NCBI GenBank assembly: GCA_965223415.1
Contig: OZ245002.1
Location: 4,096,001 to 4,160,000, forward strand
Direction of reading: 5' to 3'
Source: Myxococcota bacterium
GTDB taxonomy: Bacteria > Myxococcota_A > UBA9160 > UBA6930
Length of the DNA stretch: 64,000 nt
Shown: positions 9,543-57,550 of the stretch, piece after piece
Position numbering within the stretch: the first letter of the stretch is position 1
Layout: each line of letters begins with the position of its first letter
Made by a program: the position numbers and the translations under genes
Notes under the pieces: generated by a model
Databases searched by the model: none
The model's input: only the letters and a program-made list of their open reading frames with translations
What the model was told of the DNA's origin: nothing

Positions 9543-9571
9543 GGCACCGGGCTCCTGGTGCGGAGGAATCG

Positions 9572-11476
9572 ATGAGCGAAGAGCGGAAGCTGCTGGACGG
9601 GATCGAGACGCCGGAGGATCTGCGCGCGCTCTCCCGCGAGCAGGTCGCCCAGGTGGCGCGGGAGCTGCGCGAGGAGATCGTGCACAACGTCTCTCGCACG
9701 GGAGGACACCTGGCGAGCAGCCTCGGCGCCGTCGAGCTGCTGACCGGCATCCACTACGCCTTCGAGACCCCCCAGGACCGGCTCGTCCTCGACGTCGGCC
9801 ACCAGGGCTACGCCCACAAGATGCTCACGGGCCGGCGGGCCGGCTTCGCGAAGATCGGCAAGGAAGAGGGCATCGGGAAGTTCCTGCGCCGGGCCGAGTC
9901 GCCCTTCGACCACTTCGGCGCGGGCCACGCGGGCACCTCGATCTCCGCCGCCCTCGGCATGGCGCGCGCCTTCGAGCACCAGGGCAAGGACCACTGCGCG
10001 ATCGCGCTCATCGGCGACGGCGGGATGACCGCCGGCATGGCCTTCGAGGCCCTGAACCACGCCGGGCACCTGACCCAGAAGAACCTGGTCGTCGTCCTCA
10101 ACGACAACGAGATGTCGATCTCGCCGAACGTCGGCGCCATGTCCTCCTATCTCTCCCGCAAGCTCTCCGCGCCCATGGTGCGGCGCATGAAGGGCTGGGC
10201 GAAGGAGTTCCTCACCTCCCTGCCCGGCGACATGCTGCACTGGGCCCAGAAGGCGGAGGAATCCCTCAAGGTCTTCTTCTCGCCGGGCCTGCTCTTCGAG
10301 GCGCTGGGCTTCAAGTACGTCGGACCGATCCAGGGCCACCGCATGGAGATCGTGCTCGAGACCTTCGAGAACGTGAAGGCCATGCTGGCCGCGGGCGACG
10401 GCCCGATCCTGGTCCACGCGCTCACCGCAAAGGGCTACGGCTACGAGCCGGCCCAACAGGATCCCTTCAAGTATCACGGCGTCGGCGCCTTCGACGTGGA
10501 GAGCGGCAAGTTCGCGCCGTCGAAGCCCGGCCCGCCGAAGTACCAGAAGGTGTTCGCCCAGACGTTGATCCGCCTGGCGAAGGAGGACGAACGCATCGTC
10601 GGCATCACGGCGGCGATGGCCGACGGCACGAGCCTCGACCTGTTCAAGAAGGAGTTCCCGAAGCGCTTCTACGACGTGGGCATCGCCGAGCAGCACGCGG
10701 TCACCTTCGCCGCGGGCCTGGCCAGCGAGGGCATGAAGCCGGTGGCCGCGATCTACTCGACCTTCCTCCAGCGCGCCTACGACCAGGTCGTGCACGACGT
10801 GTGTCTGCAGAACCTGGACGTGACGCTGGCCATGGACCGGGCCGGCCTGGTCGGCGCCGACGGCGCCACCCACCAGGGCATGTTCGACATCGCCTACCTG
10901 CGCACGCTGCCCAACATCCTGTGCATGGCGCCGAAGGACGAGAACGAGCTCCAGCACATGCTGCGCACGGCCGTCGAGTACGACGGCCCGGCGGCCATCC
11001 GCTACCCGCGCGGGAGCGGCTTCGGCGTGCCGATGGACCCGGAGATCAAGGCCCTGCCGATCGGCGAGAGCGAGCTGCTCCGCGACGGCAGCGACGCGGT
11101 GATCGTGGCCTACGGAACCCTCGTGCACGACGCCGAGGAGGCGGCCGCCGAGCTCGCCGCCGACGGCATCTCCGTGGCCCTCGTGAACGCGCGCTTCGCC
11201 AAGCCCCTCGATGCCGAGCGCATCGTCGCCCTGGCGGCGCGCACCGGCGCCGTCGTGACGGTGGAGGAGCACGTGGGCGTGGGCGGCTTCGGGAGCGCGG
11301 TGCTCGAGGCCCTCTCCGCCGCCGGCGTCGAGCCCCACACCCGCTGCCTGGCGCTCCCGGACCGACCCATCGAGCACGGCAGCGCCGAGGCCCAGAAGGC
11401 GGAGATCGGCCTCTCGGCGGACGGGATCGCGGCGGCGGTGCGGGAGCTGCTCGGAAGGGGCGGAGGCGTTTCCTGA
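9572..11476 (+). CDS. dxs: 1-deoxy-D-xylulose-5-phosphate synthase
   Basis: GGHLASSLG, DVGHQGYAHK, GDG..NDNEMSI, GIAEQHAV, YSTFLQRAYDQ, DRAGLVGADGATHQG. Confidence 0.98.
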   Translation: MSEERKLLDGIETPEDLRALSREQVAQVARELREEIVHNVSRTGGHLASSLGAVELLTGIHYAFETPQDRLVLDVGHQGYAHKMLTGRRAGFAKIGKEEGIGKFLRRAESPFDHFGAGHAGTSISAALGMARAFEHQGKDHCAIALIGDGGMTAGMAFEALNHAGHLTQKNLVVVLNDNEMSISPNVGAMSSYLSRKLSAPMVRRMKGWAKEFLTSLPGDMLHWAQKAEESLKVFFSPGLLFEALGFKYVGPIQGHRMEIVLETFENVKAMLAAGDGPILVHALTAKGYGYEPAQQDPFKYHGVGAFDVESGKFAPSKPGPPKYQKVFAQTLIRLAKEDERIVGITAAMADGTSLDLFKKEFPKRFYDVGIAEQHAVTFAAGLASEGMKPVAAIYSTFLQRAYDQVVHDVCLQNLDVTLAMDRAGLVGADGATHQGMFDIAYLRTLPNILCMAPKDENELQHMLRTAVEYDGPAAIRYPRGSGFGVPMDPEIKALPIGESELLRDGSDAVIVAYGTLVHDAEEAAAELAADGISVALVNARFAKPLDAERIVALAARTGAVVTVEEHVGVGGFGSAVLEALSAAGVEPHTRCLALPDRPIEHGSAEAQKAEIGLSADGIAAAVRELLGRGGGVS

Positions 11477-12219
11477 GCCGCTGCCCCCGGCTCGACGAGC
11501 GTGTTCACGGCGAGGGGCTCGCCCCCTCGCGAACCGCCGCCCAGGCCCTCATCCGCGCCGGCAAGGTGCTCGTCGACGACGTTCCCGTCGACAAGCCCGG
11601 CACCCGCGTCTCCCCCGACGCCGCCCTGCGCGTCCGTGGCGCGGCCCGGCGCTTCGTCTCCCGCGGCGGCGAGAAGCTGGCGGGGGCCCTCGACGACCTC
11701 GGCCTCGATCCCTCCGGCCTCACCTGTCTCGACCTCGGCGCCTCCACCGGCGGCTTCACCGACTGCCTGCTCCAGCGCGGCGCGCGCGCGGTGGTGGCCG
11801 TCGACGTGGGCTACGGGCAGCTCGACCTGAAGCTGCGCGGGGATCCGCGGGTGCGGGTGCTCGAGCGGACGAACGCGCGGCACCTGCGCCCCGAGGACGT
11901 GCCCGAGCGCTTCGACCTGGTGACGATCGACGTGTCGTTCATCTCGTCGACCCTGCTGCTTCAGCGGCTGCCAGAGCTGGCGCCCGCCGCCGAGGTGTTG
12001 GTGATGGTGAAGCCGCAGTTCGAGCTGACGAGGGAGCAGGTGGGGAAGGGCGGGGTGGTTCGGGACGAGACGCTTCGGGCGGAGGCGGTGGCGCGGGTGC
12101 GCGAGGCCGCCCGCGAGCTCGGCTACCGGGTGGTCGGCGAGGCGGAGAGCCGGCTGGCGGGGCCGAAGGGGAATCGGGAGGTGTTTCTCCGGCTGCGCCT
12201 TCCCGCGGGGTCGGCCTGA
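11473..12219 (+). CDS. tlyA: TlyA family rRNA 2'-O-methyltransferase (probable CTG start)
   Basis: S4 domain RLD..GLAPSR, FVSRGGEKL, DLGASTGGFTD, DVSFIS, KPQFE, GPKGNRE. Confidence 0.92.
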   Translation: MSRCPRLDERVHGEGLAPSRTAAQALIRAGKVLVDDVPVDKPGTRVSPDAALRVRGAARRFVSRGGEKLAGALDDLGLDPSGLTCLDLGASTGGFTDCLLQRGARAVVAVDVGYGQLDLKLRGDPRVRVLERTNARHLRPEDVPERFDLVTIDVSFISSTLLLQRLPELAPAAEVLVMVKPQFELTREQVGKGGVVRDETLRAEAVARVREAARELGYRVVGEAESRLAGPKGNREVFLRLRLPAGSA

Positions 12220-12274: not shown

Positions 12275-12290
12275 TGTGAACGAGTTCACA
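12275..12290. promoter_or_regulatory. CRP/FNR-family-like operator TGTGA-N6-TCACA
   Basis: tgtgaacgagttcaca matches the CRP core consensus exactly and lies in the intergenic region upstream of 12402. Confidence 0.5.
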
Positions 12291-12401
12291 CACCCCGTCG
12301 GCGGTCGGGCGGCACCCTGGGGTCGCAACTCACTCCCCTCGCACGTCGGGCGGGTGCCGAGGTCGGCCGCCCGTTCCGCACGTGCAGAAAGAGGAATCCC
12401 C

Positions 12402-14240
12402 ATGGCACGACTCAGCCCCGGGAAGGAGCGTCTGATCAAGGACGCCCAGGACCTGACGCCCGACATCTACCGCCGCCACGTGGCGCACAGGGCCCGCAAG
12501 ATCCTCACGGATCGACACATCGACATCCAGTCGGCGGACGATCTCGCCGACATCGAGAACGCCATCGCGGCGCACTTCGAGAAGATCGACCAGGGGGCGG
12601 ACTTCCTCCCCGCGAGCTTCCTCCGCGAAGGCGCTGCTCGCGCGGATGCCGTGTGCCGGATCTCCACCGGCACGTCCCTGGGGACGGGCTTCCTGGTCGC
12701 ACCGGGGATCCTGATGACCAACAACCACGTGCTCTCCACCGCGGAAGACGCTGAGGACAGCGTGGCCGAGTTCCAGTTCGAGAGGGGCCGGGCTCCGATC
12801 GTCGTTCCGATCCGCCCGGCAGCGCTCTTCGTGACCCACGAGGCGCTCGACTTCACGATCGTGGCCTGCGACACGTCGGGCATCGAGGGCGTCACCCCGG
12901 TGCCCCTTCTCCGCAACCCGGCGACGGTCGCGCCCAACGAGCGGGTGAGCATCATCCAGCATCCGCGGGGCCGGCCGAAGGAGGTGGCGCTCCACAACAA
13001 CCCGGTGACGCAGCTTCGGGACAAGGTCGTGCACTACCGCACCGACACGGAGCCCGGATCCTCCGGGTCGCCAGTGTTCAACAACGCCTGGGATCTCGTG
13101 GCGCTCCATCACGCGGGCTGGATCGACGCCGGCCGGGCGACCAACGAGGGCGTCCGGATCTCGGCGATCGTCGCTCACCTGCTCGGCGAGGTCGCCCGGG
13201 GCGAAGCGAAGCAGGAAGCCCTGCGGCCCGTTCTCGAGTCCATCCGGGGCACCTCTCCCTTCCTGGGGATCTTCGATCTCTACGGGCTGGGAGAGGACAC
13301 GCGCGAGGTCCAGGTCGATCACTTCGCGGGAACGCCGGACTTCGCCGACATCGGCGTCTGGAACATCGAGCACTTCAATGCGAGTGTCAGCAACGATCGG
13401 GTCGACCGCGTGGCCGATGTCGTGGCCGAGCTCTCCATGGACGTCCTCGGCCTCACGGAGGTGCAGGACGAGGCGATGGACCGGCTCGTCACCCGACTGA
13501 GCGATCGCGGGATGGCGGCGGACTACCAGCTGCTGAACGTCGACGGGCGCCAGGATCTGGCGGTGCTCTACGACCGGGACACGACCCACGTGCGGCTGCG
13601 TCGCGACATCGCGCGCCGCCACGCGAGCCGGCTCGGTGCCGAGACCCCGACGGGGCGGACGGCCTTCCCCCGCGCGCCGCTCTTCGCGGATTGCACCGTC
13701 GGCAACGGGGACGGCGAGGTGCGCTTCATCAAGATCCTCGTGCATCTGAAGGCGTTCGGAGATGCCCAGAGCCGGGCGAGGCGCCGCCTCGCTGCGGAGA
13801 AGCTCGCCGAGATCATCGACGACATCCGGGATCGGGAAGGTCTCCCCGTGGTCCTTGGCGGCGACTTCAACGAGCGGATCGACACTGACGTGCTCTCGGC
13901 GGTGACCGGCTCGCCGGACCTTTTCGCCATGACCAGCGACGACGCCAACACCGACGCCATCTCCTACGTCGGCGACTCGCATCGGTCGCTGATCGACCAC
14001 GTGCTCGTCACCCGCGACGTCGCGCTCGGGGACATCCACGGCGACGACGCGGCCATCGTGCGACTCGATCGGACCGTCCGCGACTTCGCCAGTCGCGTCT
14101 CGGATCACGTTCCGGTCGTGTTCCGCATGGTCCTGCGAGACCAGCCCGTCGACGTCGACGAGGTGCCGACGCTTGGAGACGGCCTCCTGGCACCGGTTCC
14201 GGAAGGCGCCTCACGCCTTCGGCTCGCGTTCGAGGACTAG
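12402..14240 (+). CDS. Trypsin-like serine protease fused to an endonuclease/exonuclease/phosphatase (DNase I-like) domain
   Basis: Triad motifs TNNHVL, LDFTIV, TEPGSSGSPVFN; EEP motifs WNIEHF, LTEV, VHLKA, GGDFNE, IDHVLVT, SDHVPV; AGAGGA RBS; no signal peptide. Confidence 0.88.
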   Translation: MARLSPGKERLIKDAQDLTPDIYRRHVAHRARKILTDRHIDIQSADDLADIENAIAAHFEKIDQGADFLPASFLREGAARADAVCRISTGTSLGTGFLVAPGILMTNNHVLSTAEDAEDSVAEFQFERGRAPIVVPIRPAALFVTHEALDFTIVACDTSGIEGVTPVPLLRNPATVAPNERVSIIQHPRGRPKEVALHNNPVTQLRDKVVHYRTDTEPGSSGSPVFNNAWDLVALHHAGWIDAGRATNEGVRISAIVAHLLGEVARGEAKQEALRPVLESIRGTSPFLGIFDLYGLGEDTREVQVDHFAGTPDFADIGVWNIEHFNASVSNDRVDRVADVVAELSMDVLGLTEVQDEAMDRLVTRLSDRGMAADYQLLNVDGRQDLAVLYDRDTTHVRLRRDIARRHASRLGAETPTGRTAFPRAPLFADCTVGNGDGEVRFIKILVHLKAFGDAQSRARRRLAAEKLAEIIDDIRDREGLPVVLGGDFNERIDTDVLSAVTGSPDLFAMTSDDANTDAISYVGDSHRSLIDHVLVTRDVALGDIHGDDAAIVRLDRTVRDFASRVSDHVPVVFRMVLRDQPVDVDEVPTLGDGLLAPVPEGASRLRLAFED

Positions 14241-14405: not shown

Positions 14406-14738
14406 ATGGCCCTCGTCACGGTCACCGAAGCCGCCTCGACGCAGATCAAGCGGCTGCTCGATACCGAGGGGAAGACCGAGAGCCATGCCCTGCGCATGAA
14501 GGTGGTGGGGGGCGGCTGCTCCGGGCTCCAGTACCAGCTGGCCTTCGACGACCAGGACAAGGACGGGGACACCGAGATCGAGTCGAACGGCGTGCGAGTG
14601 GTGGTGGACGAGAAGAGCGCGCTCTACCTGATGGGCACGATCCTCGACTACGTCGACTCGCTGATGGAGTCGGGCTTCAAGATCGAGAATCCGAACGCCA
14701 AGACGACCTGCGGCTGCGGGCAGTCCTTCGGAGCCTGA
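14406..14738 (+). CDS. iscA: A-type Fe-S cluster carrier (IscA/ErpA, HesB family)
   Basis: GGGCSGLQY, NPNAKTTCGCGQSF. Confidence 0.92.
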   Translation: MALVTVTEAASTQIKRLLDTEGKTESHALRMKVVGGGCSGLQYQLAFDDQDKDGDTEIESNGVRVVVDEKSALYLMGTILDYVDSLMESGFKIENPNAKTTCGCGQSFGA

Positions 14739-14750
14739 GGGCCTGGGCGC

Positions 14751-15959
14751 ATGAGCGGGGGCTCCCCGCCCGCGATCTATCTCGACCATCACGCCACCAC
14801 GCCGGTGGACCCCCGGGTGATGGAGGTGATGGCGCCGCTGTTCACCGAGGACTTCGGCAACGCGGCGAGCCACACCCACGTGTACGGCTGGCGGGCGGAA
14901 GGCGTGGTGGAGGTGGCGCGGGAGCGCATCGCCGAGGCGATCGGCGCCGGGGACCCGCGGACGATCGTCTTCACCAGCGGCGCCACCGAGAGCAACAACC
15001 TGGCGCTGCTCGGCGCCGTCGCGGCCTCCCGTGCCTCGCGACCCCACGTGGTCTCGGTGGCGACGGAGCATCCGTCGGTGCTGGACCCCTGCCGCGTGCT
15101 CGAGCAGCGCGGTGCGCGGCTGACGCTCCTGCCGGTCGACGGCGAGGGGCTCGTCGATCCGCAGGCGGTGGCGGATGCGATCGGCGACGACACGATCCTG
15201 GTCTCGGTGATGGCGGCCAACAACGAGATCGGCGTGCTCCAACCCACGACCGAGATCGGCGCCCTGTGCGCGGAGCGCGGCGTGCTCTTCCACTCCGACG
15301 CGGCCCAGGCGGTCGGCAAGATCCCCCTGGACGTGGACGACCAGGCCATCGACCTGCTCTCGGTCTCCGGTCACAAGCTCTACGGGCCGAAGGGCGTCGG
15401 CGTGCTCTACGTGCGCCGCCGCAAGGCGGGACGGCGGGTTCGCCTCGAGCCACTCCAGTACGGCGGTGGCCACGAGTGGGGGCTTCGGTCGGGCACCCTG
15501 CCGGTGCCGCTCATCGCCGGGCTGGCGCGGGCGGTGGAGCTGGCCCTGGCCGAGCGGGAGCAGGAGAGCGCGCGGCTGGGGAAGCTACGGGAGCGGCTCC
15601 TCGCGGGGCTTCGCGCCGGCGTTCCGGAAGTGGTCGTGAACGGCCATCCGACCCGCCGGCTCCCGGCCAACCTGAACGTGAGCCTGCCCGGCGCCCGGGC
15701 CGAGGCGCTGCTTCCCGCGCTCCACGACGTGGCGATCTCGAGCGGCTCCGCCTGCAGCTCGGCGCGGCCCGAGCCCAGCCACGTGCTGCAGGCCCTGGGG
15801 CTCGCGGAGGAGCGCATCGCCTGCTCCGTGCGCATCGGGCTGGGGCGCTTCACGACCGCCGAGGAGGTCGACCGCGCCGCGCGCCGCATCGCGGAGGAGG
15901 CCGGGAAGCTGCGGGAGGGCGCCGGGGGGTCCGGGGACCGGGCCCCCACGGTCCGCTAG
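14751..15959 (+). CDS. iscS: Cysteine desulfurase (IscS/NifS type)
   Basis: IYLDHHATTP, FTSGATES, ANNEIG, SGHKLYGPKG, SSGSACSS. Confidence 0.93.
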   Translation: MSGGSPPAIYLDHHATTPVDPRVMEVMAPLFTEDFGNAASHTHVYGWRAEGVVEVARERIAEAIGAGDPRTIVFTSGATESNNLALLGAVAASRASRPHVVSVATEHPSVLDPCRVLEQRGARLTLLPVDGEGLVDPQAVADAIGDDTILVSVMAANNEIGVLQPTTEIGALCAERGVLFHSDAAQAVGKIPLDVDDQAIDLLSVSGHKLYGPKGVGVLYVRRRKAGRRVRLEPLQYGGGHEWGLRSGTLPVPLIAGLARAVELALAEREQESARLGKLRERLLAGLRAGVPEVVVNGHPTRRLPANLNVSLPGARAEALLPALHDVAISSGSACSSARPEPSHVLQALGLAEERIACSVRIGLGRFTTAEEVDRAARRIAEEAGKLREGAGGSGDRAPTVR

Positions 15960-31496: not shown

Positions 31497-31568
31497 CCCC
31501 GACAATGGGTGACCGTCACGAAGGGCTAGCCCCGACAATGGGTGGTGAGCGTCACGGACGACTAGCCC
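31473..31568. repeat. 33-bp tandem duplication with internal palindromes plus a degenerate third copy
   Basis: tgggtgaccgtcacgaagggctagccccgacaa at 31473 and 31506; a 20/24 copy at 31545-31568. Confidence 0.9.
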
Positions 31569-33078
31569 TGGCGACGTCGCAGTCGCGGCCCTGCCAGCGA
31601 TGGCGGCGGGCCAGGCTGGCTCGCACGATCTCCCGGAGGGCGCGGGCGCGGCCGCCGGCGAAGGACTCGAAGGTCGCGTAGCGCAGGAAGGCCCGGCATC
31701 TCGCCTCCGCCGGCCAGGCGTCGGGGAGCGAGGCGTTCAGCTCGGCCAGCGCCCGGAGCCGGCGACGTTCCGGGAGCCGACGGCGGAAGCGCAGGCCCTC
31801 CAGGTCGATCAGCACCGGCGGCGCCCCCGGCGCGTCCGGGTGAGCGAAGAGATGGCTGGCCTTGAGGTCGCCGTGGTCGATCCCGCGCAGGTGGAGCCCG
31901 GTGAGCCACGGGCCGAGCTGGCCGAGCGCCGGGAGGCGGGCAGCCTCCGGCAGCGCCAGGAGATCGCACGCCGGCGAGAGGTCCTCGAGCACGAGCCACG
32001 AGCGCACCGGGAATCCGAGCACCCGCGCCTCGAGCATGGCCAGGGGCAGCGCGGCGCCGAGGCCGCGCTCCCGCAGGCCGTGGCCGCCGCGCCAGGCGCG
32101 CCAGGCCGGACTGCCGCGGAAGGCGTCGGCGACCACACGCAACGGGCCGCGGGGCAGCACCTCCTTCACCAGCACGCCGCGGCCGCCCGCGGCCACCCGG
32201 GTGATGCGCGAGCGGCCGTCGTCCTTGAGGACCGGGCCGGCATCGCCCTTCGCGAGGGCCTCGCGGTGGGCCGCCAGTGCCTCGGCGGCCGCCGTCTCGG
32301 GGAAGGCGTGCCAGCGCAGGCCGCGGCCGGCGTCCGTGCGCAGCCGCGCCGCCTGCCGCCCGGCGCGCAGCAGGCGTCGCGTGCGGCTCCGGCCGTGGCG
32401 CCAGGCCTTGGCGCGGGCCGCCTCGCCAATCGCCCGCAGCTCGTCCGCGTCGGGCTCGGTCGTGGCCGCGCGGCGGATCCGCAGGCGATCGGCCAGGGAC
32501 GCCCGGAACCAGAGGGAGTAGTCGAGCTCGCCCAGGTCGCGGCGCCGGGCCGCCGGGCCCGCTCCCCGTCGCGCGTGCTGGAGATCGAGGAGCACCGGGC
32601 CCCGGGCGGTGAAGAGCACGTTGCCGGCGTGGAGATCGCCGTGGACGACGCCGCTGGCGTGGACGGCGCGCACGGTCCGGCCGAGGGCTTCGAGCTGGGC
32701 CCGGCGCCTCGCCGGCTCGGCGGCGAGGCCGGGAGCGCCGCTCTCCCCCTCGAGGAAGGGAAGCACGAGGATCCGATCGCCGCCGGCCAGGCGGCCCCAG
32801 GCCAGGGGTGCCGGCACCGGCACGCCCGCCCCGTGCAGGGCCTGGAGGAAGTGGCGCTCCCGGTCCGCCGGGCTGCGACCGATCGCCGCCTTCAGGCGTT
32901 CGCGCAGGGCGTGGTGCCCGCCGGTGCGGAACCGCTTGATCAGCAGGTCGTCCCGCCGCATCAGCCGACGGCGGGGGTTGTCACGCAGGACGTCCGGCTT
33001 CGCGTGGCCCTGCAGCGCCGCCTCCACCCGCCGCTGCACCTCCGCGTCGCCGCCCTGCCAGGTGATCGCCTCGCTCAT
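31552..33078 (-). CDS. LPS/Kdo kinase-like protein with two tandem kinase domains
   Basis: VPVPAPL..HGDLHAGNVL..LLDL and a second VLVKE..HGDLKASHL..LIDLE; coupled to a GT4 gene. Confidence 0.75.
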   Translation of the reverse strand: MSEAITWQGGDAEVQRRVEAALQGHAKPDVLRDNPRRRLMRRDDLLIKRFRTGGHHALRERLKAAIGRSPADRERHFLQALHGAGVPVPAPLAWGRLAGGDRILVLPFLEGESGAPGLAAEPARRRAQLEALGRTVRAVHASGVVHGDLHAGNVLFTARGPVLLDLQHARRGAGPAARRRDLGELDYSLWFRASLADRLRIRRAATTEPDADELRAIGEAARAKAWRHGRSRTRRLLRAGRQAARLRTDAGRGLRWHAFPETAAAEALAAHREALAKGDAGPVLKDDGRSRITRVAAGGRGVLVKEVLPRGPLRVVADAFRGSPAWRAWRGGHGLRERGLGAALPLAMLEARVLGFPVRSWLVLEDLSPACDLLALPEAARLPALGQLGPWLTGLHLRGIDHGDLKASHLFAHPDAPGAPPVLIDLEGLRFRRRLPERRRLRALAELNASLPDAWPAEARCRAFLRYATFESFAGGRARALREIVRASLARRHRWQGRDCDVARASRP

Positions 33079-34175
33079 CGCCGGACCCGCCCGTAGAGCG
33101 CGTGGAGCTCCTCGACGCAGATGGCCCAGCTGCGCGTCTCGGCGCGGGCCCGCGCGGCCCGGCCGAGGCGCTCGCGGGCACCGGCGTCGACCAGCCGCTC
33201 GAGGGCGTCGGCGAAGCCGTCGACGTCCTCCGGGTCCTCGACGGTCCAGCCGGCCTCGCCCAGCCAGCGGGCCGCGCCGTTCGCTCCGCTCGTCACCACC
33301 GGCAGGCCGCAGGCCGCGGCCTCGAGGCACACGTTGGCGAAGGCGTCGTAGCGGGTGGGCAGAAGTAGCGCGTCGGCGGCCGGGTAGAGCTCGGCCGGGT
33401 CCCGCCCGGCGCCGAGGAAGCGCACGCGGTCGGCGACGCCCAGGCGCAGGGCCAGCGCCCGGCCCGGTGCTTCCTCCCGGCCGGCGACCCACAGCACGCT
33501 CTCCTTCGGGCCCGCGCGTGCCAGGGCGCGAAGGGCCGTGTCGATGCCCTTGCGGTGGTGGCCGTGGCCGACCAGCAGCCAGACGAGCCGGTCGCCGCAG
33601 TCGAGCTCTCTTCGCAGGGCCTCCCGGCCGGCCGGGTCGCGACCCGGCCGGAAGCGCTCCAGGTCGACCCCGTTCGGGATGACGGCGACCCGCTCCGGTG
33701 CCACCGCATGGTGTTCGAAGAGCTCGTCGCGGACCATCTCCGAGTTGCAGTGCACCCACTGGCTCGGGTCGCGCAATACGGCACCCTCGATGGCCAGCAG
33801 CACCGCGTGGCGGGGTGTCGCCCGTCGGAGGCGGGCTCCGGCGGGGCCGTAGGCGCGCTCCATGTAGGCCGCGTGGCAGCCGCCGCCGGTGCGGTAGACA
33901 TCCTGGTGGCGGGTTCGCGAGAAGGCGTGCACGGCGTCGTAGGCCCCCCGCGGCGCAGCGCGGGCCGCGGCCCGCGAGAAGGCCCACACCCGCCAGGGCT
34001 GCCAGGCCGCAGCCACCGGCAACGGCTGCACCCGCGGGCCCTCGGAGCGCTCGGCGCGGCGGGCGAAGACGCGCACCTCGTCCCCGGACGTGTGGAGCGC
34101 GTGGGCAGTGGCCCACGCAGCGCCCTCCACCCCGCCCCCCGGCTCGAATCGTTCGATCACCAGCGCGATCCGCAT
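33075..34175 (-). CDS. Glycosyltransferase family 4 (WaaG-like LPS core)
   Basis: MRIALVIERF..GGVE, VIPNGVD, RKG, YDAFANVCLEAAACGLPVVTS. Confidence 0.88.
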   Translation of the reverse strand: MRIALVIERFEPGGGVEGAAWATAHALHTSGDEVRVFARRAERSEGPRVQPLPVAAAWQPWRVWAFSRAAARAAPRGAYDAVHAFSRTRHQDVYRTGGGCHAAYMERAYGPAGARLRRATPRHAVLLAIEGAVLRDPSQWVHCNSEMVRDELFEHHAVAPERVAVIPNGVDLERFRPGRDPAGREALRRELDCGDRLVWLLVGHGHHRKGIDTALRALARAGPKESVLWVAGREEAPGRALALRLGVADRVRFLGAGRDPAELYPAADALLLPTRYDAFANVCLEAAACGLPVVTSGANGAARWLGEAGWTVEDPEDVDGFADALERLVDAGARERLGRAARARAETRSWAICVEELHALYGRVRR

Positions 34176-39579: not shown

Positions 39580-40740
39580 GTGAGGATCCGAGGGACCTGG
39601 GCCGCCGCCGCGTTCTTCCTCTGGGCCCCGTCCCAGGGCGCCTGGGCCGCCGGCGCACCGGAGCCGCCGGAGGATGCCGTAGTGGCCGTGCTGCCCTTCG
39701 TTCCCGGCGATCCCACCCGCGTGATGGTGGATCTCGCGCCGGAGGGCCAGAAGCCCTTCGTGATGCTGCTCGACACCGGCGCCTCCGATTCCGTCGTTAC
39801 GCCTCGCATGGCGCGGGAGCTCGGTGTGCGGGTGCGGCGCGCCAAGACGACTCCCTACCGGCGGAGTACGAGCCTTGGACGCGACCTCCAGTTCTGGGTC
39901 GACGTCGCGAGCAGTGACACCGCCTCCAAGACCGGCTGGGAGTACGGGCTCCTCGGCGGCGAGTTCCTGGACGACTACGTGCTCGAGCTCGACTACCCGG
40001 CCCAGCGTGTCCGCTTCCTCGACCCGAAGAAGTACCGCGTCCCCGAGGTGGTCGAGGCGGCCGACGAGCGCGTCGTCCGGTTCAAGCGCTCGGGAACGCG
40101 CGTCTTTACCGAGATCGAGGTCGCTGGCGAGACGACGCGAGTGCTGCTGGATACGGGTGCGCCGGACACGGTGGTCCTCTCTGGGCGCGCGGCGCGGGAG
40201 CTCGGACTCGATCTCGAGAACCTGAAGTCCTTCGGCGAAGTGGGCACCGTGATGGGCCCGATGGAGGTCTTCCTGCTGGAGACCGAGGGGTTCCGCTGGG
40301 CCGGCTACGATTTCGACACGACGCCGATGCTGGTCGCGCCGAAGGGTTGGTACAACCAGGCGGGGGCCAACGACTCGGCGCTCGGCTACGACATCCTGCG
40401 GCAGTTCGTGATCCGCATCGACTACAAGCGCAAGCGGCTCTGGCTGAAGCGCTCCGGCGATCGGCGGGTGACCTTCGGTGGCGCAGACTGGGCCGCGGTG
40501 AAGGAGCTCGGTGCCATGCTCGCGCCCGTCGCGCCGGCCCAGTACTGGGTCTGGCAGGTGGACCCCGAGGGCAAGGCCGCGGCGTTCGGGCTGCGCGCGG
40601 GCGACTTCGTGGTCGACCAGCGAGCCGAGGGCCTCGAAGACCTGAAGGGCCTCATCGAAGCTGGCAAGTCGATCAAGGTCATGCGTCTCGACGAAGAGGG
40701 GATCGAGACGGTCTTCGACGTCGGGCCCCGGCAGCCCTGA
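39580..40740 (+). CDS. Exported aspartyl protease with two retropepsin-like domains and a PDZ-like tail
   Basis: Signal peptide; LLDTGASDS and LLDTGAPDT; GLLGGEFL / LGYDIL; AAAFGLRAGD. Confidence 0.82.
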   Translation: MRIRGTWAAAAFFLWAPSQGAWAAGAPEPPEDAVVAVLPFVPGDPTRVMVDLAPEGQKPFVMLLDTGASDSVVTPRMARELGVRVRRAKTTPYRRSTSLGRDLQFWVDVASSDTASKTGWEYGLLGGEFLDDYVLELDYPAQRVRFLDPKKYRVPEVVEAADERVVRFKRSGTRVFTEIEVAGETTRVLLDTGAPDTVVLSGRAARELGLDLENLKSFGEVGTVMGPMEVFLLETEGFRWAGYDFDTTPMLVAPKGWYNQAGANDSALGYDILRQFVIRIDYKRKRLWLKRSGDRRVTFGGADWAAVKELGAMLAPVAPAQYWVWQVDPEGKAAAFGLRAGDFVVDQRAEGLEDLKGLIEAGKSIKVMRLDEEGIETVFDVGPRQP

Positions 40741-56980: not shown

Positions 56981-57550
56981 GTGCGCAGGCCCGACCGTCC
57001 CCACCTCCTCGGCATCGACGACGGGCCCTTCGACAAGTTCCGCGACCCCCACGCCCCGCTGGTCGGCGTCGTGACCGAGGCCGGCGACCTCGTGGAAGGC
57101 GTCGCGGTCTCGCGCCTCGAGGTGGACGGCGACGACGTGACCCGGGTGCTCGCCGCCTGGATCGCCGGCCTGCGCTTCCGCCCCGGGCTCCACGGCGTGG
57201 TGCTGGGCGGCATCACCATTGCGGGCCTGTCGGTGGTGGACGTGCCCGCCCTCGCCGAGGCCACCGGCCTGCCGGTGATGGCCGTCGGGCGAAGGCCGCC
57301 GCGGGACGAGGCCCTGGTGGCCGCCCTCGAGACCGCCGGCCTCGCCGAGCGCGCCCGGATCGTCGCCCGCACCCCGGCGGCAAAGCCCGTGAGCGAAGGC
57401 CTCTACGCCGCCTGCGCGGGCCTGCCCGACGACGTCGCCGCCGCCTGGCTGCGCGCCGCCTGCCGCAAGAGCGCACTCCCCGAGCCCCTGCGTCTCGCCC
57501 ACCTGATCGCCGCGGCCATCGCGAACGGAAGCTCCCGGGGGCGGGTGTAG
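56981..57550 (+). CDS. DUF99 family (endonuclease V-like) protein
   Basis: LLGIDDGPF, VDGDD, GGITIAG, PEPLRLAHLIA. Confidence 0.85.
   Translation: MRRPDRPHLLGIDDGPFDKFRDPHAPLVGVVTEAGDLVEGVAVSRLEVDGDDVTRVLAAWIAGLRFRPGLHGVVLGGITIAGLSVVDVPALAEATGLPVMAVGRRPPRDEALVAALETAGLAERARIVARTPAAKPVSEGLYAACAGLPDDVAAAWLRAACRKSALPEPLRLAHLIAAAIANGSSRGRV

Follow-up and report, generated by a model that had tools for sequence, protein, structure and literature searches.

A trypsin-like protease fused to a DNase I-like nuclease in a Myxococcota bacterium: a candidate single-gene, protease-gated suicide or immunity nuclease

Introduction

Systems in which proteolysis would deploy a nuclease have been predicted computationally, and the closest described example is the NucA-trypsin system, listed as 'System 3' by Kaur, Burroughs, Iyer and Aravind (eLife 2020, PMC7159879). 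In the parts of that paper that deal with them, the NucA-trypsin systems are sometimes accompanied by S8 peptidases, EAD1-linked peptidoglycan-targeting effectors or a STAND NTPase. Here we describe a gene of related layout at 12402..14240 (+ strand) of a 64-kb stretch of a Myxococcota bacterium (contig OZ245002.1, positions 4,096,001 to 4,160,000), the whole of which we call the window. Its product, P0001, has 612 aa (plus the stop codon) and joins a trypsin-fold serine protease to an EEP (DNase I-like) nuclease. A preliminary description, made from the sequence alone, had proposed that the gene is a one-gene, protease-activated defence or cell-death system.

P0001 resembles the NucA-trypsin units in that a protease of the same clade, with the same leader, precedes a non-specific nuclease, and in that the units mostly stand alone with occasional links to S8 subtilases, EAD1 and STAND proteins, as far as the treatment of System 3 tells. 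It differs from them in the nuclease, which has the EEP/DNase I fold in P0001 and is Endonuclease_NS (ββα-Me) in NucA-trypsin; no Endonuclease_NS match was found in P0001 at E ≤ 1. Judged from its sequence, P0001 may work like a NucA-trypsin unit yet lacks its defining NucA domain, and would be an EEP-bearing variant of the predicted system. The preliminary description stated that leader-bearing proteases of this kind are fused to nucleases in conflict systems; such systems, with a proposed activation by proteolysis, are in print as a computational prediction only (PMC7159879). The EEP-fused form was not found there: EEP and exonuclease are absent from the main texts of both relevant papers of Kaur et al., and EEP, Exo_endo_phos, NucA and Endonuclease_NS are absent from two text supplement files of PMC7159879. 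Among the literature on 'NucA-trypsin' and related terms, only these two papers were relevant; PMC13069673 mentions IetAS only.

Two anti-phage systems have a protease homologous to that of P0001 as their effector, and neither carries an EEP nuclease. These are the retron type XI RT-protease (PADLOC model RT-Protease_XI, E 1.6e-9 over residues 56-258) and Avs1b, the AVAST type 1 protease (E 8.1e-5 over residues 82-157); weak PDC models of PADLOC also match the protease part. P0001 itself lies outside both systems, as it has no reverse transcriptase (RT) or NTPase domain, and the window has no msr/msd RNA by Rfam and no STAND or NACHT gene among its called genes.

The EEP domain shares its fold and full catalytic set with DNase I, DNase1L3, SpnA, ExeM/NucH and MnuA. 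These nucleases are secreted or surface-anchored; P0001 lacks an export signal and carries a protease in the same chain. In the staphylococcal S1B proteases (V8/GluV8, Esp, SplA-F), the pro-peptide sits where the N-terminal extension of P0001 sits, and pro-Esp entries of the Protein Data Bank (PDB) are among the fold matches of P0001. The S1B proteases are secreted zymogens processed by other proteases; P0001, in contrast, has a conserved 59-residue, two-helix segment and is predicted to stay in the cytoplasm. Caspase-activated DNase (CAD) with its inhibitor ICAD offers a functional analogy only, for which no homology is claimed: in both, a protease step would unleash a non-specific DNase that dismantles the genome, whereas CAD is built from unrelated folds and has a separate inhibitor protein, and in P0001 everything lies in one chain.

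Results

Domain organization of P0001

From its sequence, P0001 is a cytoplasmic protein in which both enzyme sites are intact. We modelled it with AlphaFold2 on an 87-sequence family alignment (mean pLDDT 85.8, pTM 0.86) and observed two N-terminal helices, a protease barrel, two linker helices, an EEP sandwich and a less confident tail, in that order. The pLDDT fell below 50 at residues 62-65, 299-307, 518-524, 545-548 and 589-591.

The protease with its leader comprises residues 60-265 (12579..13196, +). Pfam Trypsin_2 matched residues 94-235 (E 3.3e-22; 80.2 bits against a cut-off of 27.6), and this above-gathering score together with the His-Asp-Ser triad, H109 (12726-12728), D150 (12849-12851) and S221 (13062-13064), places P0001 among the chymotrypsin-fold serine peptidases of clan PA. 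The leader reads E60-K-I-x4-D-F-L-P-x-x-F-L-x-x-G, and E60 is kept in 86 of the 87 family sequences. A linker follows at residues 266-313 (13197..13340, +); its segment 299-307 is predicted to be flexible and holds E302 (codon 13305-13307), the first residue of a junction motif, E-V-Q-V-D-H-F in P0001, and kept in 85/87 sequences. The EEP domain spans residues 314-577 (13341..14132, +). Exo_endo_phos matched residues 320-569 (E 6.8e-13; 49.3 bits against a cut-off of 24.5), and as all nine metal-binding and catalytic residues of the superfamily are present (N321, E323, E353, H448, D488, N490, D532, D568 and H569), the domain was assigned to the EEP superfamily. In the family alignment, the protease triad is kept in 86/87 sequences, the nine EEP residues in 80/87, and both sets in 80/87; six of the seven sequences with a degraded EEP site retain the protease triad.

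The N-terminal segment, residues 1-59 (12402..12578, +), consists of helices 20-35 and 45-59 (pLDDT >90), and residues 11-55 as a whole are also above 90. It carries the family motif L-C-P-G-K (LSPGK in P0001) and then an Arg-rich helix, F-R-R-L-V-x-R-R-A-R. We found no Pfam match to it at E ≤ 1, EAD families included; searches for a look-alike outside the family in the ESM Atlas and for a match in proteins of 1072-3060 aa were also negative and are weak evidence. An EAD adaptor, recognizable by a match to an EAD family or by recurrence of the segment on other proteins, was thus not seen here, with the same weakness of the negative searches. At the other end, the C-terminal tail, residues 578-612 (14133..14237, +; pLDDT 54-78), has a conserved end, I-P-x-G-A-x-x-L-x-L-x-F, whose P600 is kept in 80/87 sequences, and in relatives it is replaced by a C-terminal Endonuclease_1 or Endonuclease_NS domain.

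A hydrophobicity scan, which is a heuristic, revealed no signal peptide or membrane segment in P0001, the best 10-residue window within the first 40 residues scoring -0.07 and the best 19-residue window 1.27; on this basis P0001 is not placed among the secreted or surface nucleases, which bear a signal peptide, lipobox or cell-wall anchor. The preliminary description was right on all of these features: its length of 612 aa, helical N-terminus, triad positions, EEP motifs, tail and two intergenic gaps matched the sequence, Pfam and AlphaFold2 results, and the cytoplasmic location that it gave agreed with the scan.

Exchange of the nuclease behind one protease

Next, we compared the architectures of the relatives. 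Among the 50 closest protease-only relatives with an open reading frame (ORF) call, the protease was joined to Endonuclease_NS in 35, to Endonuclease_1 in 5 and to a GDSL domain in 3, and stood alone in 7. The nuclease fusions have the same layout as P0001, with an N-terminal extension of ~60-150 residues, then the protease and then the nuclease. Additions were also seen in 46 longer representatives of the EEP fusions, namely Endonuclease_1 (6), Endonuclease_NS (4), GDSL (7), Lipase_3 (1) and peptidoglycan amidases (two Amidase_3 and two Amidase_2 with DUF2272). One protease chassis is therefore combined with three nuclease folds that are unrelated to one another and, more rarely, with lipid or cell-wall hydrolases and conflict-system adaptors. 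The repeated association of the same protease with three unrelated nuclease folds, in the same order, argues that the protease and the nuclease work as a unit, and judged from these architectures the modularity of the family appears conflict-like.

The fusions also share features at the two borders of the protease. The leader, E-[KR]-[IV]-x-G...D-[FL]-L, which is opened by E60, is conserved throughout the nuclease-fused protease clade. The junction motif, E-x-x-[VIL]-x-[PD]-D-[FYW], opened by E302, occurs in 47/72 EEP fusions against 3.6 expected from shuffles, and in 15/29 Endonuclease_NS fusions (two of which look spurious) against 1.4 expected.

Two of the 46 longer representatives have unusual compositions. 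P0162, a metagenomic protein of 2645 aa, holds AAA_16/NPHP3_N (a STAND-type NTPase), EAD1, two trypsin stretches, EEP and PhoD in one chain; it is either a natural sensor-effector fusion or an assembly artefact. P0210 has EAD5 and two trypsin domains.

Conserved glutamates and a predicted dimer

In the 87 sequences, the glutamates conserved at 90% or more are E60, E249, E302, E323 and E353 only. E323 and E353 are catalytic residues of the EEP domain and E249 lies in a confidently folded protease strand. The other two, E60 and E302, are found on either side of the protease core, at or within its low-confidence borders (62-65 and 299-307). Each of these two is preceded by a hydrophobic residue and followed by [K/V]-[I/V].

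A homodimer model of residues 1-300 scored 0.49 against 0.00 for the best control, with at least 90% of the contacts shared between runs and a partner pLDDT of at least 80. The mark set on this score was reached by 20/30 proteins solved as one-chain pairs versus 1/23 solved as single chains. The predicted interface is symmetric and is formed by leader residues 65, 68-75, 77-78, 81 and 84 together with residues 127-130 and 185-199, so a role of the leader in pairing is plausible from the model.

Relatives of the protease and nuclease domains

By family profile, the nearest solved proteases in the PDB were SplB, SplA, SplE, V8 and other glutamyl endopeptidases, Esp, the exfoliative toxins and FAM111A, the staphylococcal S1B proteases among them at 1e-11 to 1e-9 (SplB, SplA, V8 and Esp at ~1e-11), and Foldseek matched the protease to the FAM111A protease domain (E 8.3e-11), Esp, V8 and HtrA. 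Spl, V8 and Esp are secreted as zymogens that become active once their N-terminus has been processed exactly, and cleavage by V8 and Esp occurs after Glu. Four homologs bear the automatic JGI name 'V8-like Glu-specific endopeptidase'.

For the EEP domain, the best Foldseek matches were human and bovine DNase I (E 1.7e-11, TM 0.73 on the target) and DNase1L3, followed by TDP2 (E ~2e-9, TM up to 0.74), EEPD1 and nocturnin. The best match by family profile was to the PDB chains 9sf9/9sf8 (E 1.3e-10), read as chains of SpnA, the code being cited by a paper on Streptococcus pyogenes nuclease A. SpnA was reached by the family profile alone; a PDB search with the single EEP-half sequence gave nothing meaningful. 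Weak NCBIfam matches were to the MnuA and ExeM/NucH nucleases; the scores in this database (28.7 against 185 in one case and 24.5 against 300 in another) stayed far under the cut-offs, and the xth (exonuclease III) model matched weakly (E 0.069). Taken together, the EEP domain is best read as a putative non-specific nuclease of the DNase I type, although TDP2 is as close to it in fold. The nuclease reading is favoured because relatives swap in Endonuclease_NS or Endonuclease_1 behind the same protease.

Family size and distribution

In a word-seeded homolog search, 8000 candidates were scored, of which 1827 passed E ≤ 0.001, and the best 120 were examined. Both Pfam domains were present in all 120; 87 of these proteins have 560-720 aa, 32 have at least 850 aa and one is shorter, and their non-self identity to P0001 was 52-66%. 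The sources named were Planctomycetaceae, Acidobacteria, Nitrospirota, Myxococcota, Gamma- and Alphaproteobacteria, Thermoanaerobaculia, a Prochloraceae cyanobacterium and Tatlockia. An exhaustive HMMER search of 1.84 billion cluster representatives gave 8280 matches at E ≤ 0.001 and 466 at E ≤ 1e-30.

When one genome per species was searched, at least 290 relatives were present among at least 600 pattern matches listed, and the best 80 loci were kept. Both domains were covered in 26 of these and the protease part alone was matched in 54; the window's own genome was not among them. Five loci over whose match no ORF was called (L004, L034, L049, L054 and L077) were left out of the neighbourhood and architecture counts. 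Genes on the loci used were called crudely, and the neighbours of the homologs were clustered by BLASTP. Homologs at 51-65% identity were observed here in Planctomycetota, Acidobacteriota, Nitrospirota, Cyanobacteriota, Bacteroidota, Bacillota and Pseudomonadota.

A quick maximum-likelihood tree was built from 25 two-domain loci and P0001. The phyla interleave on it, as the 12 Pseudomonadota rows need 6 changes, at least 3 of them forced by starred branches, and the 4 Acidobacteriota rows need 3. The tree neighbour of P0001 is a Planctomycetaceae protein (63% identity, SH-aLRT 89, branch not starred), and local vertical clusters are formed by Roseobacteraceae, Solibacteraceae and Bacillota. 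The patchy distribution for which the preliminary description had asked was thus seen, and it suggests, from the sequences compared, horizontal transfer. The best non-self homologs, which are metagenomic proteins that come without genomic context, were 81-84% identical for TlyA, encoded directly upstream, versus 66% for P0001.

A full-length two-domain homolog of 35% identity (L018:1409-3277) comes from a Nitrosopumilus, hence archaeal, metagenome bin and has a long branch on the tree. It could be a cross-domain transfer or a binning error, and its gene adjoins an astacin metalloprotease gene.

Gene neighbourhoods of the homologs

No neighbour gene is conserved across the 25 two-domain loci. 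The largest neighbour family spans 5 loci at varying positions, and its two Pfam-scanned members are sensor histidine kinases, so that it looks generic. Likewise, no conserved partner was found in 50 loci of protease-only relatives, where the largest family shared among 282 neighbours spans 4 loci. The stand-alone character of the gene, noted in the preliminary description for its place between tlyA and iscA, was therefore confirmed at the locus (gaps of 182 and 165 nt) and in these 25 + 50 loci, and on the gene orders compared the P0001 family is a single-gene unit family-wide. The pattern of a polymorphic toxin or a toxin-immunity pair was not seen, there being no conserved neighbour in the 25 loci and no trafficking domain in Pfam. 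In one locus, L006, an Imm17 gene lies three genes from the homolog.

Within three genes of the homologs in the 25 loci, 127 neighbours were scanned with Pfam and found to be heterogeneous and mostly metabolic or housekeeping; 10 of the 127 had PADLOC matches at E ≤ 1e-8. Clearly defence-like neighbours occurred in two of the 25 loci only: L005 has a type II methyltransferase, and L020 has two TIR proteins, of which one carries NB-ARC. The defence-island enrichment expected by the preliminary description did not appear. The less specific matches were three subtilases, a patatin, a TPR protein and two ABC ATPases. In L020, a Thermoanaerobaculia contig, the TIR protein (L020:4-861) adjoins the homolog on one side and the TIR-NB-ARC protein (L020:6836-8167) lies two genes off on the other, and this is the one locus that resembles a defence island. 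An S8 subtilase gene lies within two genes in 4/25 loci (L007:8654-9949, L010:6371-8017, L011:6558-8462 and L014:8014-9033); three of the four match the PADLOC 'subtilase' model and one also matches IetS. These neighbours echo the subtilisin link noted for NucA-trypsin systems in the relevant parts of Kaur et al. (PMC7159879).

Export signals are rare in the family: the hydrophobicity scan detected a hydrophobic N-terminus in 2/269 proteins (one a fragment) and a transmembrane (TM)-like stretch in 4/269, and 7/50 nuclease-swapped relatives have a TM-like stretch, most of these within the protease fold. The preliminary description had taken core, syntenic and secreted homologs as the sign of a function other than defence; by the scan the homologs almost all lack a signal-like N-terminus, and they share no conserved neighbour, yet their neighbours are mostly housekeeping or metabolic.

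A GDSL-like module of ~340 aa is fused N-terminally to the homolog in eight loci (L005, L009, L010, L011, L015, L017, L028 and L047), and is encoded by a separate gene directly downstream in two Rhizobiaceae loci (L041:11764-12810 and L044:11703-12704), with 30-46% identity to the fused forms. Judged by this identity, the fused and separate forms are a fusion/fission pair and a second recurrent, putative effector of the family. No copy of the module was found in the window by tblastn.

Discussion

We tentatively read P0001 as a protease-gated, self-contained suicide or immunity nuclease, and put the chance of this somewhat below even. P0001 would be made as a latent pro-enzyme and would pair through its conserved leader (residues 65-84). 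Upon a trigger, the protease would cut one or both of the flexible segments that border it, and the cut would separate or unlock the EEP nuclease, leading to degradation of cellular or invader DNA. The outcome would be cell death or growth arrest, as in abortive infection or programmed cell death, and by analogy P0001 might be a functional counterpart of caspase-activated DNase. The preliminary description holds in what it observed and is partly supported in how it interpreted this; the defence role, self-cleavage, auto-inhibition and self-sensing that it proposed are hypothetical. We regard as doubtful the more far-reaching idea of a one-polypeptide 'apoptosis executioner', in which a dimeric, latent protease would sense its own trigger through the N-terminal segment or its monomer-dimer state, would cut itself at the E60 and E302 hinges and would release the DNase to destroy the genome. 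Sensor, switch and two effectors would then share one chain, and in different lineages the same chassis would have captured three unrelated nuclease folds, lipases and cell-wall amidases to dismantle the whole cell.

Several points weigh against a gated suicide or immunity nuclease. The gene lies amid core housekeeping genes (xseA, xseB, ispA, tlyA, the IscA-like gene, cysteine desulfurase and APS kinase), its composition is mildly atypical only, and neither flanking repeats nor tRNA or Rfam marks of a mobile element were found at it. Defence-island enrichment was not seen within three genes of the 25 homolog loci, and the literature search found no experimental study of the family and no defence or toxicity phenotype. 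The PADLOC check proposed in the preliminary description also failed to support defence, in that PADLOC-DB 2.0.0 has no model covering the whole protein and the protease part alone matches. Many domains that sense invaders are poorly conserved, and the N-terminal segment differs from them in its good conservation. The junction motif is present in 0/4 Endonuclease_1 fusions (0.2 expected from shuffles) and is missing in about one-third of the EEP fusions, and its pattern was written after sight of the alignment. The dimer model may have passed its controls in part because it resembles protease dimers that are already solved, for instance that of FAM111A (8s9k), and the fold similarity of the EEP domain to TDP2 is as high as that to DNase I. 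Finally, D215 stands at what we take to be the position of trypsin D189, which would give a preference for Lys/Arg rather than Glu, for example at K61-I62, so the protease may cut after Glu or after Lys/Arg.

Other functions have to be weighed against these observations. P0001 could serve as the effector of a system that has its sensor gene at another place. A STAND or other NTPase, or a protease such as a subtilase, would then recruit or activate it in trans, and the N-terminal segment would be a docking adaptor (the 'EAD principle'). The composition of P0162 and P0210, the subtilase genes near four of the 25 homologs and the use of this protease clade as the effector of Avs1b point that way, as do the EAD1- and STAND-linked versions of NucA-trypsin in the parts of Kaur et al. 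that treat them (PMC7159879). We find this improbable, as the N-terminal segment has no EAD or other Pfam match and no look-alike outside the family or on proteins of 1072-3060 aa (weak evidence), P0162 is a single metagenomic protein, the window holds neither an NTPase sensor nor a subtilase, and no partner is conserved across 75 loci. It is similarly improbable that P0001 belongs to a cocktail of digestive or lytic enzymes that leaves the cell non-classically or when the cell lyses, and that serves in predation, in the scavenging of nutrients or in clearing extracellular DNA. Endonuclease_1, Endonuclease_NS, GDSL and class-3 lipases and N-acetylmuramoyl-L-alanine amidases usually act outside the cytoplasm, and it is these modules that are added in relatives; the solved or curated proteins nearest to the EEP domain (SpnA, ExeM/NucH and MnuA) are nucleases of the cell surface or the extracellular space, the solved proteins nearest to the protease (Spl, V8 and Esp) are secreted, and no immunity gene is visible in the producer. 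Against such release stand the near absence of export signals in the scanned family, the lack of a conserved transporter gene nearby, and the spread of the family over phyla with very different secretion machinery and an archaeon. Moreover, relatives that begin with a GDSL module have the N-terminal segment of P0001 at an internal position, and the segment is therefore no N-terminal export signal.

A part in the repair of DNA-protein crosslinks, in which the protease would trim the trapped protein and a TDP2-like EEP domain would remove the phosphotyrosyl-linked peptide or process the DNA end, is very unlikely in our view. DNA-protein crosslinks are a target of FAM111A and phosphotyrosyl DNA ends a target of TDP2, and the fold matches to the FAM111A protease domain, TDP2 and EEPD1 would suit this function, as would a cytoplasmic single gene without an immunity partner, four genes downstream of xseA-xseB (exonuclease VII). 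These FAM111A and TDP2 matches, however, are at the level of the general fold (14-19% identity), the affinity at the sequence level is to non-specific nucleases, and no DNA-repair neighbour recurs across the 25 loci; repair would also leave the fusions to non-specific nucleases, lipases and cell-wall amidases, and the occasional STAND and EAD modules, unexplained. The two enzymes could, lastly, be fused and yet independent, or the nuclease could be harmless or specific and need no gating, the protease not regulating it. Harmless cytoplasmic EEP enzymes such as exonuclease III exist (the xth match of P0001 is the weak one given above), and the pTM of 0.86 points to two domains held in a fixed body more than to a tethered pro-form. 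We judge this quite improbable because the same protease has become fused, repeatedly and independently, to three different nuclease folds with the order of the domains unchanged, and in view of the linker motif common to EEP fusions and about half of the NucA fusions, and the retention of the triad in most sequences whose EEP site is degraded.

If the protease does gate the nuclease, P0001 would be a minimal protease-gated nuclease with neither an NTPase sensor nor a partner gene. It would make it simple to study by experiment how suicide effectors of bacteria are kept silent and then triggered, and current defence catalogues (PADLOC 2.0.0) would be missing this class. Three nuclease folds behind one protease are also a clean natural experiment on effector modularity. 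If the gating proposal is wrong, a large family that crosses many phyla is still an uncharacterised cytoplasmic protease-nuclease with a cellular role to explain.

Genomic setting of the P0001 gene

The ORF starts with ATG at 12402 and ends with a stop codon at 14238-14240. A ribosome-binding site, AAGAGGA (12389..12395, +), was read directly from the sequence 6 nt 5' of the ATG. A longer ORF with a GTG start at 12276 also exists, and no ribosome-binding site precedes that start. The gene is separated from tlyA, which ends at 12219, by 182 nt and from the following Fe-S_biosyn/IscA-like gene, which begins at 14406, by 165 nt. Upstream lie xseA, xseB, a polyprenyl synthase gene (ispA) and tlyA, together with a presumed dxs; downstream, the IscA-like gene is followed by a class-V aminotransferase (cysteine desulfurase), APS kinase, a TPR protein and an oligopeptide ABC system. 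All other genes of the window with a Pfam match are likewise housekeeping genes. The preliminary description had remarked that nadK and recN often follow tlyA, and neither was among the genes identified in the window. Its statement that no sensor gene lies nearby was borne out, as the genes called in the window include no NTPase sensor, no STAND or NACHT gene, no subtilase gene and nothing else that would plausibly act in defence.

A PADLOC scan of 64 window proteins gave generic matches only: ABC ATPases, a TatD protein matched as QatD, a sigma factor matched as MzaA and the cysteine desulfurase matched as DndA/SspA. This desulfurase (14751-15959, +), encoded beside the IscA-like gene, matched DndA at E 8.9e-155 and SspA at E 1.3e-152, with no match to DndB-E or SspB-D among the 64 proteins scanned. 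It looks like an ordinary IscS/NifS-type enzyme, and a case where a defence scan could mislabel a gene.

Around the P0001 gene, searches for flanking direct or inverted repeats, terminators, promoters, tRNAs and Rfam families returned only short, imperfect repeat pairs, 72-93% identical. Insertion by a mobile element was considered and rejected, there being no convincing flanking repeat, tRNA, Rfam family or terminator. At third codon positions the gene has a G+C content (GC3) of 0.88, ~2 sd lower than the mean of 0.929 (sd 0.024) calculated for 52 genes of the window. As a sign of recent transfer this composition is not decisive: the presumed dxs gene nearby (9560-11476, +; a putative name, given from the sequence) lies in a stretch with a G+C of 0.66-0.71, below its flanks and similar to that of the P0001 gene, so the lower G+C of the latter is not unique to this stretch. 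The GC3-based gene caller missed the presumed dxs.

Three further observations were made in the window. A GT4 glycosyltransferase gene (33078-34175, -) with a secondary Pfam match to 'GT4-conflict' (E 4e-10) adjoins a gene for a Kdo/WaaP-like kinase (31555-33078, -), and the pair probably serves ordinary envelope biosynthesis. A retropepsin-like aspartyl protease protein (Asp_protease_2 / gag-asp_proteas, E ~1e-16), unrelated to P0001, is encoded at 39580-40737 (+). An Endonuclease dU (Endo_dU) gene, likewise unrelated to P0001, lies at 56981-57547 (+).

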